Assembly: GCA_965224025.1 (NCBI GenBank)
Contig: OZ245033.1
Coordinates: 4,032,001-4,096,000 of the forward strand
Length of the DNA stretch: 64,000 nucleotides
Direction of reading: 5' to 3'
Source: Candidatus Multivorans sp.
Lineage (GTDB): Bacteria; Acidobacteriota; Thermoanaerobaculia; Multivoradales; Multivoraceae
Part shown: positions 48,443-53,389 of the stretch, one piece after another
Layout of the letters: each line of letters opens with the position of its first letter
Position numbering within the stretch: the first letter of the stretch is position 1
The notes under the pieces: model-generated
Told to the model about the DNA's origin: nothing
The model's database searches: none
Seen by the model: the letters and a program-made list of their open reading frames with translations, nothing else
Made by a program: the position numbers and the translations under genes

Positions 48443-50410
48443 GTGACCCGAAGAATGCTCATCAACGCGCAGAGCTCGACCGAGCTCCGCATCGCCATCG
48501 CCAACGACTCGGTACTCGAAGACCTGAAGGTCGAGATCGCCGAGCGGGGCCTGACCCGCGGCAACATCTACTACGGCAAGATCGCCAACATCGAGCCGAG
48601 CCTGAACGCCGCCTTCATCGACTACGGCGCCCCCAAGCACGGCTTCCTGGCCATCCAGGATGTCGTGCCCGACGCGTACTACCAGGCGGCGTCTAAGTCC
48701 CATCGACCCAAGATCGAGGACGTACTCGTCCGCGGCCGCCCGATCGTGGTTCAGATCACGCGCGAGCCGGAGGGTGCCAAGGGCGCTGCCCTGACCACGA
48801 ACCTGAGTCTGGCGGGGCGCTATCTGGTGCTTTCGCCCTTCGACAAGACCAGTGGCGTTTCCCGAAAGGTCGACACCGAGGAGGTTCGCCTCAAGCTGAA
48901 GGCGATGGCGGAGTCGCTGCCGGTGCCGGACGGCGGCGGCGTGATCGTGCGCACCAACGCCCTGGGCCAGACGAAGACGGCCCTCAGCCGGGACATGAAC
49001 GCACTGCTCCGGCTATGGAAGCGCATCTCCCGGGACGCCCGCGATTCCAAGGGCACGAGGCTCCTCTACAGCGATCAGGACATCGTGCTGCAGGGGCTGC
49101 GCGACTATCTCGACAGCGCGATCGAGGAGGTCTGGGTCGACGAAGACACCGCCCACGGACGCGCCGAGCAGTACATGCGCGCCTTCATGCCGCGCAGCAA
49201 GACGGTGCTGCACCGCTACACGGGCCGCAAGCCGCTGTTCTCGGTCTACGAATTGGAGCCTCAGATCGAGAACATCTTCGAACGCCGGGCGGACCTGCCC
49301 TCGGGCGGCTCGATCGTGATCGATCCGACCGAGGCCCTGACCGCCATCGACGTCAACTCGGGCCGCTCCAAGAAGGCGTCGAGCCAGGAGGAGACGGCGG
49401 CGAACACGAACGTCGAGGCCGCGGCGGAAGTCGGCCGGCAACTCCGCCTGCGGGACATCGGCGGCCTGATCGTGGTCGATTTCATCGACATGCGCAGTCT
49501 GCGCAACCGGCGCAAGGTCGAGAAGGCGATGAAGGACGCGATGAAGGCGGACAAGGCGCGCTCCAGTGTCGGCCGGATCAGCGCCAACGGACTGCTCGAG
49601 ATCAACCGCCAACGGATCCACCAGGCGCTCCAGTTGCGCACCCACGGCGACTGCCCCAACTGCGCCGGCACCGGCCGCGTCGCCAGTCCGGACCTGGTCG
49701 CCCTGCGCCTTCTCCGCAACATCGAGTCCCACGGCGCCGGCGGCTACATGCGGGGCGTGCAGATCGCCCTGCAGCCGGAGCTTGCCAACTTCCTCCAGAA
49801 CCGGCATCGCGAGGCACTCGTCAATCTGGCCAGGGAATTCGATATCGAGATCGAGATCGCAGGGCAGCCGCAAATGGAGGGCCGTGAGCCGGAGATCAGT
49901 TGGATCGCCCGCGACCTGGCCGAAGTGAAGAAGAGGGAGAAGGAAGAGGCCAAGGAGAAGAGGCTGGAGCAGGAAATGCTCGCCACTCCCTCGATCGGCG
50001 ACACCGACGAAGAAGGCGAGGCGGCCGCCGGCGACAGCGCGGCCGAAGGCGCACCGAAGCGCCGCCGGCGCCGGGGCGGACGCAGGCGGCGGTCCGGGAC
50101 CGCGCGCAAGGGGAAGGCGAAGGACGAGGCCCGCAAGAAGGACGGCGCCGCCAAGCAGGCGAAGAAGAGCGAGAAAGCACCCGCCAAGGCGAAGAAGACG
50201 GCGGGGACGGCCGCAATCAAGGTCCCCGGCATCGACACTCCGGCGGCGGACGCAGCGCCCGGCGGAAACGGCAAGGCCGGCGACGCAGCCGCGGCGAGCG
50301 GCAACGGCGCGCCCCGCACGACCAAGCGGCGGCGACGCCGACGCCGGCCCCGCCGGCCCCAGGCCGCCGCGGCAAGCGGTGAGTCACCGCCGGCCGAGAC
50401 GAGTCCCTGA
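48443..50410 (+). CDS. rne: Ribonuclease E/G family
   Basis: GNIY.G, AAFIDYG, TEALTAIDVNSG, LRLRDIGGLIVVDFIDM, CPNCAGTG Zn-link, Arg-rich disordered C-terminus. Confidence 0.93.
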   Translation: MTRRMLINAQSSTELRIAIANDSVLEDLKVEIAERGLTRGNIYYGKIANIEPSLNAAFIDYGAPKHGFLAIQDVVPDAYYQAASKSHRPKIEDVLVRGRPIVVQITREPEGAKGAALTTNLSLAGRYLVLSPFDKTSGVSRKVDTEEVRLKLKAMAESLPVPDGGGVIVRTNALGQTKTALSRDMNALLRLWKRISRDARDSKGTRLLYSDQDIVLQGLRDYLDSAIEEVWVDEDTAHGRAEQYMRAFMPRSKTVLHRYTGRKPLFSVYELEPQIENIFERRADLPSGGSIVIDPTEALTAIDVNSGRSKKASSQEETAANTNVEAAAEVGRQLRLRDIGGLIVVDFIDMRSLRNRRKVEKAMKDAMKADKARSSVGRISANGLLEINRQRIHQALQLRTHGDCPNCAGTGRVASPDLVALRLLRNIESHGAGGYMRGVQIALQPELANFLQNRHREALVNLAREFDIEIEIAGQPQMEGREPEISWIARDLAEVKKREKEEAKEKRLEQEMLATPSIGDTDEEGEAAAGDSAAEGAPKRRRRRGGRRRRSGTARKGKAKDEARKKDGAAKQAKKSEKAPAKAKKTAGTAAIKVPGIDTPAADAAPGGNGKAGDAAAASGNGAPRTTKRRRRRRRPRRPQAAAASGESPPAETSP

Positions 50411-50432
50411 CAGGCGCCGGCAGCGCCTCGCA

Positions 50433-50458
50433 CCTGGGAACGCTGGCATCCTGCCCGC
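50433..50458 (-). repeat. REP-like 26-mer, copy 4 (reverse)
   Basis: Reverse complement GCGGGCAGGATGCCAGCGTTCCCAGG, 1 mismatch to copy 1. Confidence 0.8.
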
Positions 50459-50558
50459 ACCCGGCGCGAAGCGACGATCCGCGACGCCGGAGATTCCGGC
50501 AACGCCTCGCACCGCTGGCCTACCTACTTAGCTACTAACCCCCTGAAAACACGGAGGT

Positions 50559-50588
50559 TTGACAAGGACCCGGCGAATCCATAACTAT
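50559..50588 (+). promoter_or_regulatory. Putative sigma70 promoter
   Basis: TTGACA at 50559-50564 and TAACTAT at 50582-50588. Confidence 0.6.
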
Positions 50589-50716
50589 CGCGTCGTAGTC
50601 GTTCCGCTCGCGTCGCGAGGCGTTGGCGGCGGTTTCGGGGTCAATCGGGGCGATCCCGCGACTGGGTGGGGTGGGACCCACCACTTTGTGGATGTGCCCG
50701 GAAAGGAGGTGGTCTA

Positions 50717-50761
50717 GTGGAGTACTGCAGATGCGGCTTGATGGAGGTGGCGGCTCCCTAG
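50717..50761 (+). CDS. Putative 14-aa micro-peptide MEYCRCGLMEVAAP
   Basis: GTG start 6 nt after AAAGGAGGT; TAG stop. Confidence 0.4.
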   Translation: MEYCRCGLMEVAAP

Positions 50762-51006
50762 GTAACCCCTGTTTGGCGTAGGGCATCTCCTTCGGGAAGC
50801 ATTCCCACGCCATCCCATCGGCCAAAAGCCCGGGTGGCGCGATCGGCGCCATCCGTGAAACAGTCCATGCGTCCGTCAGCGGACGCTTGGATGACACCAG
50901 GGTGGCGCGATCCGCGCCACCCGTGAACCGATCCGGGCACCCGTCATCGGGTGCACGGCTGGCACGCTTGACCGAGCTGCGGATACCGCGGTCCAAGAGC
51001 GTCGAC

Positions 51007-51047
51007 GGAGCCCCGAGGCGCATCCGCCCTCGGGGCTCCTTTTCTTT
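51007..51047 (+). terminator. Intrinsic terminator
   Basis: GGAGCCCCGAGG / CCTCGGGGCTCC stem followed by TTTTCTTT. Confidence 0.88.
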
Positions 51048-51127
51048 CCGGTTCAGCGTCGCCTCTTCCCCTCAGCCCGCGGTTCCGTACAATCGCCCAC
51101 CTCACCTTCCAACGGCGGAGACTGAAC

Positions 51128-53389
51128 ATGGCGGCGATCGGCACCCCAACCAAACTGCTCGAGGGCAAACCCAAGGTCAAGGGCTCGCTGCGCTACTGCG
51201 GCGACCTCGAACGGCCCGGGCTGCTCCATGCCCGTCTGGTCACCAGCCCACACGCGCACGCCGAGGTGCTGAGCATCGATACCGCGGCGGCCGAGGCCCT
51301 GCCCGACGTCGCCGCCGTCATCACGGCAGCAGATCTGCCCGAGCTCCCGGCCAACAGCCGGGCGATGCTCATGCTCGCCCGCAAGCGGGCGATCTTCGTC
51401 GGCCATCCGGTCGCCCTGGTCCTGGCCGAAAGCGAGGCCCGGGGCGCGGATGCAGCAGAAGCGGTCGAGGTCGACTACCGGCCGCTCGACGCCGCGGTCA
51501 CACTGGAACAGGCCGAGATGCCTTCGGCGCCGCCGGTGTGGCCCAACGGCCTGCCCGGCCAGTCCGCGGAGGCGGCGGCGCACGGCGCCGGGGGCGCGGG
51601 CGACGACGGCGGCGAGGGTCCCTCGTCGCCCAACGTGACGAACCGCATGCGCTTCGACCGCGGCGACCTCGCCGCCGGCTTCGCCGCCGCCGACGCCGTG
51701 GTCGAGCGGAGCTTCACCACCGCGGCGGTTCACCAGTCCTACGTCGAACCGCACGTGGCTCTGGTCGATCCGGACCCGATGGGCGCCGGGATGACGATCT
51801 ACAGCTCCACGCAGGCGACGTTCTACATCCGGGACACGGTCGCCTACGTGCTCGGCCTGTCTCACGAGCAGGTGCGCGTCATCGGCACGCCGGTCGGCGG
51901 CGGCTTCGGCGGCAAGTTCCTTCTCTACGAACCGCTCCTGGCCATCGCCGCGACGCAGCTCCAGCGCCCGGTGCGACTGATGATGAGCCGAACCGAGGAG
52001 ATGCTGGCCGCTACACCGGCGCCCTCGACCCGGATCACGATCCGCGCCGGCGCCAGACGGAGCGGCGAGCTGACGGCGCTGGAAGCCGAGTTGGCGATGG
52101 ACTGCGGCTGCTTCCCATCGTCCATGACCGCACTTGCCGGCACCCTGCTCGGCAGTTCCTACCAGACGCCGAATCAGTCCGTCGGCGGCTACGAAGTGGT
52201 CACGAACAAGCCCTCCATCGGCGCCTATCGCGCGCCGCTGGCGCCGCAGGCGGCGTTCGTGGTGGAGACCGTGCTCGATCAACTGGCCCAGGCGCTGGGG
52301 ATCGACCCGCTCGAGATGCGCCTCGTGAACGCCTCGGAGTCCGGCCAGCCGATGGCCTCCGGGATGCCCTGGGCCGGCATGGGCCAGCGCCAGGTGCTGG
52401 CGGCGCTGCAGGCCCACCCCTCGTGGCAGAACCGCGAGCAGGCGCGGGCGGAAGGCCGCGGGGTCGGCATCGCGCTCGGGGCTTGGCCCGGCGGCACGGA
52501 GCCCGCCGCGGCCGCCTGCGCGCTCCAGGGCGACGGTACGCTCAAGGTTCACATCAGTTCGGCCGACATCACCGGCACGAACACGAGTCTGGCCCTGATC
52601 GCGGCCGAGGCCTTCGGCGTCGAACCGGAACGGGTCACGATCGCCACCGGCGATACCTCGAGCGGTCCCTTCGCCGGCTCCTCCGGCGGCAGCAAGATCC
52701 TCTACACCGTCGGACCGCCGGTGATCCAGGCCGCCCGTGAGGCCCGGCAGCAGACCCTGGAACTGGCCGCGGCGACTTTTGAGGCCGCGCCGGAAGACCT
52801 GGAGATCGTGGATGGCGAGGTCCGGGTCAAGGGATCGCCCGACAAGGCCATTCCGCTCAAGAAGATTGCTCAGCGGACCATGCGCTTCGGCAGCCGGCAG
52901 GCACCGGTGTTCGGCCACGGACGCCATGCCCAGACCGGCCAGGCGCCCGGCTTCTGCGCCCAGCTCGCCGAGGTGGCGGTCGACCGGGAAACGGGCCGGG
53001 TGAAGGTCGAGAAAGTGGTCGTCGTCCAGGACTGCGGACGCGCGATCAATCCGCCGGCGGTAGAAGGGCAGATGATGGGCGGCGCCATGCAGGGCATCGG
53101 TTGGGCGCTCTACGAGGAGATGGCCTACAGTGACGATGGCCAACTGCTGACGGCGACCCTGAACGACTACGCCCTGCCTCACTTCGTCCACGGACCGACC
53201 GAGGTCGAGACCGTGCTGGTCGAGGTCCCTTCGGACGCCGGTCCGTTCGGCGCCCGGGGCGTCGGCGAACCGCCGGTCATTCCTACCGCGGCCGCGGTCG
53301 CCAACGCGATCGCCGATGCCTGCGGCGCCCGTCTCACGGAGCTGCCGATGACGCCGCCGCGCGTCCTGGCTGCCATCAACGGAGCCTGA
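51128..53389 (+). CDS. Xanthine dehydrogenase-family molybdopterin-binding large subunit
   Basis: SPHAHA, VHQSYVEPH, VGGGFGGK, AYRAP, DCGRAINP..VEGQ..GG..QGIGWALYE, GARGVGEPP. Confidence 0.92.
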   Translation: MAAIGTPTKLLEGKPKVKGSLRYCGDLERPGLLHARLVTSPHAHAEVLSIDTAAAEALPDVAAVITAADLPELPANSRAMLMLARKRAIFVGHPVALVLAESEARGADAAEAVEVDYRPLDAAVTLEQAEMPSAPPVWPNGLPGQSAEAAAHGAGGAGDDGGEGPSSPNVTNRMRFDRGDLAAGFAAADAVVERSFTTAAVHQSYVEPHVALVDPDPMGAGMTIYSSTQATFYIRDTVAYVLGLSHEQVRVIGTPVGGGFGGKFLLYEPLLAIAATQLQRPVRLMMSRTEEMLAATPAPSTRITIRAGARRSGELTALEAELAMDCGCFPSSMTALAGTLLGSSYQTPNQSVGGYEVVTNKPSIGAYRAPLAPQAAFVVETVLDQLAQALGIDPLEMRLVNASESGQPMASGMPWAGMGQRQVLAALQAHPSWQNREQARAEGRGVGIALGAWPGGTEPAAAACALQGDGTLKVHISSADITGTNTSLALIAAEAFGVEPERVTIATGDTSSGPFAGSSGGSKILYTVGPPVIQAAREARQQTLELAAATFEAAPEDLEIVDGEVRVKGSPDKAIPLKKIAQRTMRFGSRQAPVFGHGRHAQTGQAPGFCAQLAEVAVDRETGRVKVEKVVVVQDCGRAINPPAVEGQMMGGAMQGIGWALYEEMAYSDDGQLLTATLNDYALPHFVHGPTEVETVLVEVPSDAGPFGARGVGEPPVIPTAAAVANAIADACGARLTELPMTPPRVLAAINGA

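Follow-up and report, generated by a model that had tools for sequence, protein, structure and literature searches.

Two copies of a dispersed repeat lie inside a probable free-standing small-RNA gene with a conserved mini-ORF in Candidatus Multivorans sp.

The window analyzed here is a 64,000-nt stretch of contig OZ245033.1 of Candidatus Multivorans sp. Between an RNase E/G gene (rne) and a molybdopterin-dependent oxidoreductase gene lies a region in which an earlier note, made from the letters alone, had seen a candidate structured RNA of about 450 nt, bounded by a promoter-like site and a terminator and containing two look-alike hairpin modules. The features of this region, all but one on the plus strand, are as follows.

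48443..50410, plus strand: rne, the upstream neighbor (Pfam RNase_E_G, 5.6e-93; RNase_E_G_Thio, 6.9e-16)
50429..50490, no strand assigned: one copy of a second dispersed repeat (~45 nt, unrelated to the modules), with many genomic matches
50559..50564, plus strand: -35 hexamer (TTGACA) of the small-RNA gene, shared unchanged by all 20 aligned orthologues
50583..50588, plus strand: putative -10-like hexamer AACTAT after an 18-nt spacer; relatives have AACTAT or CAGCAT there
50595..51047, plus strand: predicted transcript, its start placed from the -10 and its end from the terminator
50604-50607 / 50626-50629, plus strand: helix P1 of the 5′ domain (alignment A1)
50630-50634 / 50660-50664, plus strand: helix P2 of the 5′ domain (alignment A1)
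50665-50670 / 50677-50682, plus strand: helix P3 of the 5′ domain (alignment A1)
50646-50649 (P2 loop) with 50697-50700, plus strand: pseudoknot PK1, directly 5′ of the ribosome-binding site
50700..50715, plus strand: extended Shine-Dalgarno sequence, 16 nt against the 16S rRNA 3′ tail (13 Watson-Crick and 3 G-U pairs)
50717..50761, plus strand: mini-ORF with GTG start, 14 codons (MEYCRCGLMEVAAP) and TAG stop, recognized by frame conservation
50735..50823, plus strand: 3′ domain closed by helices P5 and P6, in which ORF codons 7-12 (50735-50752) pair with 50808-50823
50746-50752 with 50808-50814, plus strand: P6, GGTGGCG with CGCCATC (alignment A2)
50826..50963, plus strand: inserted block, absent from most orthologues (boundaries good to 1-2 nt)
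50829..50896, plus strand: module 1, a copy of a dispersed 67-nt two-hairpin repeat (genome-wide repeat search)
50897..50964, plus strand: module 2, the second tandem copy of this repeat (genome-wide repeat search)
50964..51002, plus strand: tail hairpin of the host RNA, specific to the genus and conserved there with paired changes
51007..51047, plus strand: intrinsic terminator, an inverted repeat with 12-bp stem and 9-nt loop, then a T-run at 51040-51047
51128..53389, plus strand: molybdopterin-dependent oxidoreductase gene, the downstream neighbor (Pfam MoCoBD_1, MoCoBD_2, Ald_Xan_dh_C)

The TTGACA site and the strong terminator of the earlier note are both present. In 75 of 94 homologues, an exact TTGACA precedes the ribosome-binding site by 130-179 nt, and other lineages have CANNAT-like -10 hexamers. 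The terminator stem is a perfect inverted repeat (51007-51018 / 51028-51039) followed by TTTTCTTT; it is kept in orthologues with variable loops, and an equivalent hairpin and T-run lie 3′ of the RNA in other lineages. A consensus promoter/terminator scanner listed no plus-strand site and missed both elements, owing to a weak -10 and to a terminator loop exceeding the scanner limit of 8 nt. The predicted transcript is ~452 nt long here and ~315-330 nt in relatives without the insert, and it folds with an MFE of -249 kcal/mol (z -5.9). In relatives, the element is covered by contigs from the RNA libraries of four studies, although such libraries may also contain DNA. One such contig runs from the body of the RNA through one module into the terminator stem, and one from a relative ends at 50593, a weak hint of the transcript start. 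These are contigs rather than raw or strand-specific reads, with depths that are not comparable between genes, and stretches lacking contig cover, such as 50504-50571 and 51048-51081, carry no meaning. The sequence features support 50559-51047 as a discrete promoter-to-terminator unit, which would encode a structured RNA.

Other reading frames across the unit were considered and rejected. The minus-strand ORF at 50535-51023 (162 aa) had no Pfam match and is not regarded as a gene because it spans the insert as well as regions with 1-2-nt indels among relatives, and the plus-strand 52-codon ORFs 50559-50717 and 50623-50781 are broken by such indels. The Rfam scan that the earlier note had proposed matched no family: with Rfam 15, there were no gathering-threshold matches in the whole window and nothing credible at E<=10 in 50380-51140, while scans of 18 homologue loci returned tRNAs only and scans of five loci at E<=0.1 returned one weak unrelated match. 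A divergent tmRNA, 6S, SRP or RNase P RNA was ruled out, as that note had anticipated, since each of these has an over-threshold match elsewhere in the genome.

The observations on the modules themselves were accurate. They are two direct 68-nt copies, 75% identical, at a 68-nt period. Their hairpin A 28-mers (50832-50859 and 50900-50927) are identical at 26 of 28 positions, and the hairpin A pattern has two matches in the window vs. 0.00 expected from 100 shuffles. Hairpin B (50869-50886 vs. 50937-50954) carries two changes that preserve pairing, G-C to A-U and U-A to C-G. The loops are GATC(G/C) in hairpin A and TCAG or TCAT in hairpin B, and no repeated single-stranded binding motif such as GGA was found in them.

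The modules are, however, only two of 166 copies of a dispersed repeat, detected by iterated nhmmer at 163 loci of the same genome, 89 on the plus and 77 on the minus strand, after a first look had given at least 40 scored copies at 85-90% identity from 183 candidates. Only two loci are true tandem dimers; mosaic arrangements and solo hairpin units also occur. A crude gene call places 96 of the 160 copies with scores of 30 bits or more between genes, and most of the 64 overlapping copies sit at ORF ends. In gaps between co-directional genes, 24 copies run in the direction of the genes and 23 in the opposite direction. It was found in 16 of 18 same-genus genomes and in none of 12 genomes of other families. 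In 67 distinct ungapped copies, hairpin A was 95.4% and hairpin B 91.8% paired, compared to 24-65% when the partners were slid, with changes on both sides of a pair in 20 cells of hairpin A and 26 cells of hairpin B.

REP and BIME elements are repetitive extragenic palindromes, and RAYT is the Y1 transposase cognate to REP elements. The repeat described here resembles REP/BIME in consisting of short, GC-rich imperfect palindromes at high copy number, largely intergenic and in both orientations, among whose copies paired changes keep the hairpins. It differs from them in joining two dissimilar hairpins in a 67-nt unit that, in the genomes searched, did not occur outside this genus, and from RAYT-associated REP in that no RAYT gene was found: the Y1 transposase model (PF01797) had no match in this genome, which is 100% complete, and the control was positive in 6 of 14 reference genomes. 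Target-site duplications of at least 4 nt were absent from 70 ungapped copies beyond what the conserved ends explain, and the repeat has no terminal inverted repeats of the kind that define a MITE, as its ends are not inverted repeats of each other. These searches show the modules to be copies of a REP-like, 67-nt, two-hairpin repeat limited to the genus among the genomes searched.

Within the unit, the modules occupy the linker between the 3′ domain and the tail hairpin with the terminator. The insert measures 139 nt here vs. 1-7 nt in 30 of 35 distinct genus units; the remaining five comprise this genome with two modules, one unit with a single module, one with a 39-nt hairpin-A-like piece, and two with a 43-nt deletion. 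A relative outside the 35 units is rearranged and lacks the tail, and the tail hairpin is deleted in two relatives (L074 and L075). The module features stand far beyond chance by genome-wide repetition and not by structure-driven evolution of the transcript. Because the modules are dispersed-repeat copies missing from most orthologues, their compensatory differences are no evidence of selection on the host RNA, contrary to what had been proposed from this single locus, and their apparent "covariation" belongs to the repeat family. As the modules appear to be co-transcribed in relatives, they may conceivably help in a secondary way, for instance by stabilizing the RNA. Hairpin A of the repeat has 7-mers in common with helix P6 of the host RNA. 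One search of the organism's own genome settled the question, and the lesson for method is that paired differences between look-alike hairpins lying side by side count as evidence of covariation only once repetition across the genome has been ruled out.

The RNA that received the insert is far more widespread. Without the insert it is ~320 nt long and present in a single copy per genome. It was found in 41 of 41 same-genus genomes at 83-94% identity. At the order level, 85 of 151 genomes matched at E<=0.01, a count that includes one unpublished genome (G167) and about seven short matches to other parts of the query. The RNA occurs in most families of the order and in several other Acidobacteriota families, and all 50 of the fetched loci outside the genus have the Shine-Dalgarno/ORF arrangement. 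A strict pattern matched 37 of 401 phylum genomes, with no match for the reversed control, and a covariance model matched 24 of 151 sampled phylum genomes, once each. What is new at this locus is this conserved, previously unannotated host RNA with a mini-ORF, found in many Acidobacteriota. The earlier description as a structured RNA of ~450 nt thus holds insofar as there is a discrete unit matching no Rfam family, while the modules are not part of the conserved ~320-nt RNA.

The genomic surroundings of the host RNA are constant only within the genus, where the unit always lies between rne and one constant downstream gene, and where a TACAAT is conserved between the terminator and that gene. 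The ~45-nt repeat at 50429..50490 corresponds to query positions 19-80, which matched many sites in this genome and in same-genus genomes. Outside the genus the neighbors vary, and include aminotransferase IV with a histidine kinase, an SSF transporter, Dus, carbamoyl-phosphate synthase, PEPCK and MFS, among others. In at least 6 of 19 loci the downstream gene is convergent to the host RNA. The proximity to rne, as first noted, holds in the genus; of the 10 order-level loci fetched (L098-L107), two also have rne next to the host RNA, arranged differently, and at phylum level rne came within 1.5 kb in 0 of 11 loci checked. Because the context varies, we regard the host RNA as a free-standing gene rather than a leader.

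According to the 3′ end read from the organism's own 16S gene, the longest complement to the 16S tail in the genome is the one in the host RNA, at 14-16 nt, and the 14-mer AAAGGAGGTG[AG]TC has only two sites in 5.14 Mb, here and at the complement of the 16S gene end itself. In all 95 distinct homologues a start codon follows GGAGG at 7-15 nt, the frame of the mini-ORF is kept (12-19 codons, three stop-codon types, length changes in-frame) and the stop comes two codons after Glu-Val-Ala. There were no in-frame stops in 546 variable codons, compared to 45 and 53 of 477 in the two alternative frames and a shuffle mean of 35. Many genus-level changes are synonymous, the third positions of the GAG and GTG codons are invariant across the 95 sequences, and the N-terminal half of the peptide is not conserved. 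A second GGAGGTGG lies inside the mini-ORF at a fixed 11 nt upstream of the stop. Regulatory codon runs are absent from the mini-ORF.

Because a MAFFT alignment of 68 diverse sequences over the whole length proved ragged at the flanks, it was split into two domain alignments, A1 (68 sequences, 5′ domain) and A2 (67 sequences, 3′ domain); a stack-finder run over all column pairs was dropped for its many spurious GC-rich stacks. In A1, 91.8% of cells in P1-P3 and PK1 were paired vs. 30-49% for slid partners, with both-side changes in 14 of 19 pairs, and 0 of 500 shuffles reached the observed values; because the homologues are related, significance is overstated by the shuffle controls and by the permutation controls alike. 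PK1 has six pairs in most lineages, four of them changed on both sides, with 82.8% of cells paired, and only 4 bp in this genus. The 3′ domain was 90.9% paired overall vs. 26-47% when slid (A2). Within it, P5 was 81.9% paired with both-side changes in five of six pairs, and P6 was 98.5% paired, varied only by G-U and never changed on both sides; the conservation of P6 could also serve another purpose, such as an internal Shine-Dalgarno-like motif. The covariation among homologues that the earlier note wished to see checked is found in P1-P3, P5 and PK1 of the host RNA, and the modules are absent from most of the orthologues.

Taking the locus as a whole, it is very probably a free-standing small-RNA gene hit by a mobile-like repeat, the host RNA being conserved together with its mini-ORF. 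CsrB/RsmZ-type RNAs sponge protein via repeated hairpins with a GGA-type loop motif, and in this genome the repeated hairpins within one small RNA recall them. The modules are real, form hairpins, differ by pairing-preserving changes and fall within the transcription unit, and in relatives RNA-library contigs extend across a module. Yet we find it hardly credible that they are built-in units of a ~450-nt protein sponge, with compensatory changes reflecting selection, as the earlier note had suggested, because the same module recurs on both strands throughout the genome, is absent from 30 of 35 distinct orthologous units, differs in occupancy between close relatives (none, one or two modules, or a fragment) and has loops without a repeated binding motif. 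Unlike the hairpins of CsrB/RsmZ, these are a lineage-specific insertion of a genome-wide element, and no tie was found between the locus and a CsrA-like protein. A cis-acting leader, comprising a leader peptide and attenuator of the molybdopterin-enzyme gene, or a 3′-UTR element of rne, is suggested by the classic attenuator layout of a short ORF followed by a terminator and by the constant flanking genes within the genus. A fixed co-oriented downstream operon and regulatory codons were not found, though, and we consider this reading very unlikely given the differing neighbors outside the genus, the convergent downstream genes, the conserved promoter of the unit itself, and the TACAAT between the terminator and the downstream gene.

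Two further alternatives concern the mini-ORF. If the unit were a mere mRNA for a 14-residue peptide, with incidental RNA structure, one would expect the frame conservation, in-frame length changes, three stop types, avoidance of in-frame stops and synonymous changes that we observed. However, ~300 nt are conserved vs. a coding region of 42 nt, helices covary outside and across the ORF, the third positions of GAG and GTG never vary and half of the peptide is not conserved, so we judge such an mRNA to be unlikely. Conversely, a purely non-coding decoy for the 16S rRNA 3′ tail or for 30S subunits, with an ORF that is never translated, would be consistent with the unique 14-16-nt complement, the second GGAGGTGG copy and the compact pseudoknotted fold. 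Such a decoy needs no reading frame, yet all 95 homologues retain the frame, the start spacing and the stop position, and in-frame stops are avoided, which makes it, in our view, decidedly unlikely.

In the preferred reading, the host RNA is probably a dual-function small RNA that engages ribosomes and has its fold opened as it is translated. As in dual-function RNAs, it has its own promoter and terminator, covarying structure and an ORF selected to stay open. The long Shine-Dalgarno sequence may capture 30S subunits, and translation of the mini-ORF would melt P5 and P6, as it must because the last codons pair with the 3′ strand. The second GGAGGTGG could hold the terminating ribosome. The RNA might in this way switch between a closed and a ribosome-opened form and act as a dual-function or translation-sensing small RNA. 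This chain of 30S capture, unzipping, ribosome holding and switching is put forward tentatively, as a possibility that we rate below even. A still bolder proposal, and a rather unlikely one, is a new class of riboregulator in Acidobacteriota, in which capture by the 16-nt anti-Shine-Dalgarno complement, unzipping of the closing helices by the ORF and holding of the terminating ribosome would report ribosome or release-factor availability. The hold would occur at a stop that is mostly read by RF1, via the internal GGAGGTGG and a nascent end of Glu-Val-Ala-x-(Pro/Ser).

The host RNA resembles tmRNA as a single-gene, pseudoknotted RNA of 300-400 nt with a short internal ORF predicted to engage ribosomes. 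It is distinguished from tmRNA by the lack of an RF00023 match at the locus, the presence of two canonical tmRNA genes elsewhere in the genome, the absence of a tRNA-like ends motif, and an ORF with canonical Shine-Dalgarno sequence and start codon. The tmRNA tag usually ends in Ala-Ala, and the host-RNA peptide does not. In the portions of the literature available to us, the nearest parallel is rnTrpL, an attenuator-derived dual-function small RNA with a 14-residue leader peptide (PMC6614838); dual-function small RNAs carrying a short ORF are the subject of a review (PMC12310071). Both RNAs are small, independently terminated and carry an ORF of ~14 codons, with RNA-level and coding constraints visible in ours. 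The host RNA is about three times longer than rnTrpL, pseudoknotted, and without a regulatory codon run or fixed downstream operon, and it has the 16-nt anti-Shine-Dalgarno complement, a Shine-Dalgarno-like motif at a fixed distance from the stop and a distribution over many Acidobacteriota families. The sources accessible to us contained no report of such an RNA in Acidobacteriota, including under Candidatus Multivorans and Thermoanaerobaculia.

The host RNA joins three features that we did not find together in any Rfam family or in those same sources: a full-length complement to the 16S tail that is unique in the genome, a mini-ORF with frame and end kept phylum-wide, and last codons paired into the closing helices. 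Most Acidobacteriota lineages carrying it are uncultured. The natural alleles with zero, one or two modules provide a comparison for the tolerance of REP-like insertions inside a structured RNA. Should translation toggle the fold, the host RNA would offer a tractable way to study RNA sensing of ribosomes or of translation termination, and the proposed riboregulator class, if it exists, would amount conceptually to a second tmRNA-like structured RNA containing an ORF, built on a different logic.

All the features that the earlier note had described between the promoter hexamer and the end of the unit (50559-51047) were present where it had placed them. The two modules differ at 2 of 28 positions in their hairpin-A 28-mers and by two changes in their hairpin-B stems, both of which preserve pairing. 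The Rfam scan that the note had called for returned no family at gathering thresholds across the whole window, and at E<=10 nothing credible was found in 50380-51140. The features are, in window coordinates:

48443-50410: RNase E/G gene (rne), flanking
50559-50564: TTGACA promoter hexamer
50717-50761: mini-ORF of 14 codons, MEYCRCGLMEVAAP, with a GTG start seven bases downstream of the ribosome-binding motif
50829-50896 and 50897-50964: two direct 68-nt copies (the modules), 75% identical
51007-51039: terminator, a 12-bp perfect inverted repeat followed by TTTTCTTT
51128-53389: molybdopterin-dependent oxidoreductase gene, flanking

Comparison with relatives separated the modules from the RNA gene that carries them. 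The segment 50535-50825 is found in single copy, at 83-94% identity, in 41 of 41 same-genus genomes, and aligned orthologues keep the promoter hexamer, the body, the tail hairpin and the terminator, with the body directly joined to the tail. Occupancy of the insertion site was scored over 35 distinct genus units.

Contents of the insertion site in 35 distinct genus units
1-7 nt: 30 units
Two modules (window genome): 1 unit
One module: 1 unit
39-nt hairpin-A-like piece: 1 unit
43-nt deletion of the tail hairpin: 2 units

The closest relative (L010), which is outside these 35 units and 97% identical in the body, has at this site a rearranged repeat consisting of hairpin A, reversed hairpin B and hairpin A (from position 1900 of that locus onward). 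Its tail hairpin and terminator are gone, as is the stretch that precedes the downstream gene, so its small RNA may read into that gene. Since the insertion site lies directly 3′ of the 3′ strand of the helices that close the host RNA, it is a linker that tolerates insertion and, apparently, a hotspot.

When the organism's own genome was searched with 50559-51047, we recovered the locus itself and dozens of 67-72-nt matches on both strands (85-90% identity), and these dispersed matches cover the module part of the query only. Iterated nhmmer converged at 166 repeat copies in 163 loci (89 in plus and 77 in minus orientation), among which true tandem dimers occur at only two loci, the window locus and C1:1443993-1444127 (C1 being a contig of this genome). 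Genes were called crudely from GC3, which gave 3006 ORFs over 71% of the genome, an underestimate. By this call, of the 160 copies with scores of 30 bits or more, 96 fall between genes and 64 overlap ORFs, most of them at extreme ORF ends; in co-directional gaps, 24 copies are oriented with the genes and 23 against them. Of 18 same-genus genomes, 16 carry the repeat family, and none of 12 from other families of the order does. Pairing, scored over 67 distinct ungapped copies, reaches 95.4% in hairpin A and 91.8% in hairpin B, compared with 24-65% for slid partners, and both-side changes occur in 20 and 26 cells, respectively. Pairing-preserving differences between any two copies are thus a family property, and the compensatory differences between the two modules, which had been read as selection on the structure of this RNA, are a trait of the whole repeat family. 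We have high confidence in reading the "tandem covarying modules" as a REP-like insertion. A search for the repeat's partner gene did not find a Y1 (RAYT) transposase, and neither target-site duplications nor terminal inverted repeats were seen, so we name the repeat REP-like only, its membership in a REP-RAYT system not being proven. Nor do we class it as a MITE, as these last two features were not seen.

Other repeat-related elements were observed in and around the locus. A solo, reversed hairpin-B-like unit lies between the terminator and the molybdopterin-enzyme gene in six relatives (loci L011, L012, L017, L022, L026 and L027), so that the 67-nt module seems to be a mosaic of hairpin units that can be separated. 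Hairpin A (50834-50856, 50902-50924) shares the 7-mers GGTGGCG and CGCCACC with host helix P6 (50746-50752/50808-50814), which these 7-mers form in most lineages. The overlap may be accidental, given the GC-rich sequence, or it may hint that the host RNA pairs with the repeats. A second dispersed repeat, ~45 nt long, has a copy at 50429-50490, between the rne stop codon and the small-RNA promoter; it occurs many times in this genome and in others of the genus, with two copies in tandem at C1:1343777-1343892. Finally, a GTTCCGTA(A)CAATCGC motif at 51070-51100, between the terminator and the molybdopterin-enzyme gene, is kept in all genus loci viewed and is probably the -10 region of that gene itself.

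The host RNA is not tmRNA, 6S, SRP RNA or RNase P RNA, none of which the earlier note had recognised in it: all four score over threshold elsewhere in the genome, and the homologue loci likewise matched no Rfam family. Both tmRNA (RF00023) copies are outside the locus and the window (G000:C1:1078052-1081830; 134.2 and 132.3 bits), on the same strand and 3.4 kb apart, and may represent a duplication or a mobile element carrying or targeting ssrA. The host-RNA core was matched in 85 of 151 genomes sampled from the order (E<=0.01), a count that includes the unpublished genome G167 and, by our reading, about 7 short matches to other query parts. The same arrangement was present in all 50 non-genus loci fetched, of which a strict expression picked up 36 and a looser one the other 14; a strict pattern matched 37 of 401 genomes sampled across the phylum, and its reversed control gave 0 hits. 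A covariance model of the 5′ domain hit 24 of 151 phylum genomes exactly once each, and the hits cluster by family (e.g., 5/5, 6/6 and 2/2 versus 0/8 and 0/10). Public records matching a genus-invariant 25-mer are all MAGs labelled Acidobacteriota, Thermoanaerobaculia, 'Candidatus Multivorans' or Holophagales bacterium.

Structure was assessed in alignments of 68 sequences below 92% identity for the 5′ domain and 67 for the 3′ domain, the latter without L110, which has a long insertion; both omit the insertion or deletion units L009, L010, L012, L062, L074 and L075, as well as L155. The 5′ domain comprises helices P1, P2 and P3 and a pseudoknot, in which the P2 loop pairs with the six bases immediately before the ribosome-binding site. 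Its cells are 91.8% paired versus 30-49% for slid partners, with both-side changes in 14 of 19 pairs, and 0 of 500 shuffles reached the observed values. The closing helices of the 3′ domain (90.9% versus 26-47%) are P5 and P6, formed between the second half of the mini-ORF and a 3′ strand that lies 60-70 nt downstream; P5 has both-side changes in 5 of 6 pairs, and P6 is 98.5% paired with G-U variation only. The P3 loop may form a second tertiary contact with a motif that immediately precedes the 3′ strand of P6: complementarity runs over a mean of 5.02 consecutive bp in true pairs versus 4.44 +/- 0.08 bp after permuting loops and motifs between sequences (none of 2000 permutations reached the true value), which is suggestive only because the compared sequences are related.

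The segment 50700-50715 is complementary to 16 nt of the organism's own 16S rRNA 3′ end (13 Watson-Crick and 3 G-U pairs), and the complement is perfect over 16 nt in 4 of 95 distinct sequences, from other lineages. The 14-mer AAAGGAGGTG[AG]TC occurs twice in 5.14 Mb, in the host RNA and in the complement of the 16S gene end. The 99 loci gave 95 distinct homologue sequences, and each of these has an invariant GAG GTG GCN that shares its frame with the first GTG, TTG or ATG found 7-15 nt past GGAGG. The mini-ORF is 12, 13, 14, 15 or 19 codons long, and its end is always exactly two codons past the Ala (TAG 70, TAA 23, TGA 2); within the mini-ORF length always changes by multiples of three, which is not so in the spacer. 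Its variable N-terminal part has 0 stops in 546 codons in frame 0, versus 45 and 53 in 477 in the other frames and a mean of 35 (minimum 17) in 2000 shuffles. The third positions of the GAG and GTG codons are invariant, indicating an RNA-level constraint on top of the coding constraint; this RNA-level constraint could be pairing in P6, or else the internal Shine-Dalgarno-like GGAGGTGG at a constant 11 nt upstream of the stop. In the non-redundant set, 66 of 68 stops are read by RF1, and the peptide ends in Pro in 29 and in Ser in 24 of the 68; stop shares in this genome, by a crude gene set, are TAG 35%, TAA 5% and TGA 59%.

Proximity to rne, mentioned in the earlier note, holds within the genus and, divergently, in 2 of 10 order-level loci (L098-L107), and fails at the phylum level, where rne was within 1.5 kb in 0 of 11 loci checked. 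Beyond the rne-linked loci the neighbours are unrelated genes, and in at least 6 of 19 loci the gene downstream is transcribed convergently. In 75 of 94 homologues an exact TTGACA precedes the ribosome-binding site by 130-179 nt, and in other lineages a GC-rich hairpin with a T-run also follows the host RNA. Variable neighbours, convergent downstream genes, an own promoter hexamer and terminator-like hairpins mark the unit as free-standing, and we are highly confident that the host is a small-RNA gene in its own right, conserved and structured, whose mini-ORF is under selection.

Expression data consist of assembled contigs of public RNA libraries at >=85% likeness, which give presence and continuity, not strand, ends or level. 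Four metatranscriptome runs from four studies each had one short contig over a relative's host RNA:

50593-50857
50632-50823
50645-50827
50672-50795 joined to 50896-51018: body through one module into the terminator stem

The host RNA is thus present in RNA libraries, which may contain DNA, and body, module and tail are continuous in a relative. In two studies, contigs (one of them at the very high depth of 1465) match the host RNA over the long Shine-Dalgarno segment 50688-50723 alone and have different flanks; they are probably a distant homologue of the host RNA from another organism in the samples.

REP, BIME and RAYT, tmRNA tags, CsrB motifs and proline-dependent termination problems served as background for comparison. 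Because the pseudoknot abuts the ribosome-binding site and the last codons are locked in P5 and P6, ribosome binding and mini-ORF translation would have to compete with the fold, and the fixed internal GGAGGTGG together with the biased stop and C-terminal residues suggests that the terminating ribosome matters. The data fit less well with an mRNA that serves only its peptide, with a cis leader, with an untranslated decoy for the 16S tail, or with the sponge that the earlier note had proposed, than with a small RNA that has two functions or senses translation. We tentatively favour this last reading, that the host RNA is possibly a dual-function or translation-sensing small RNA.
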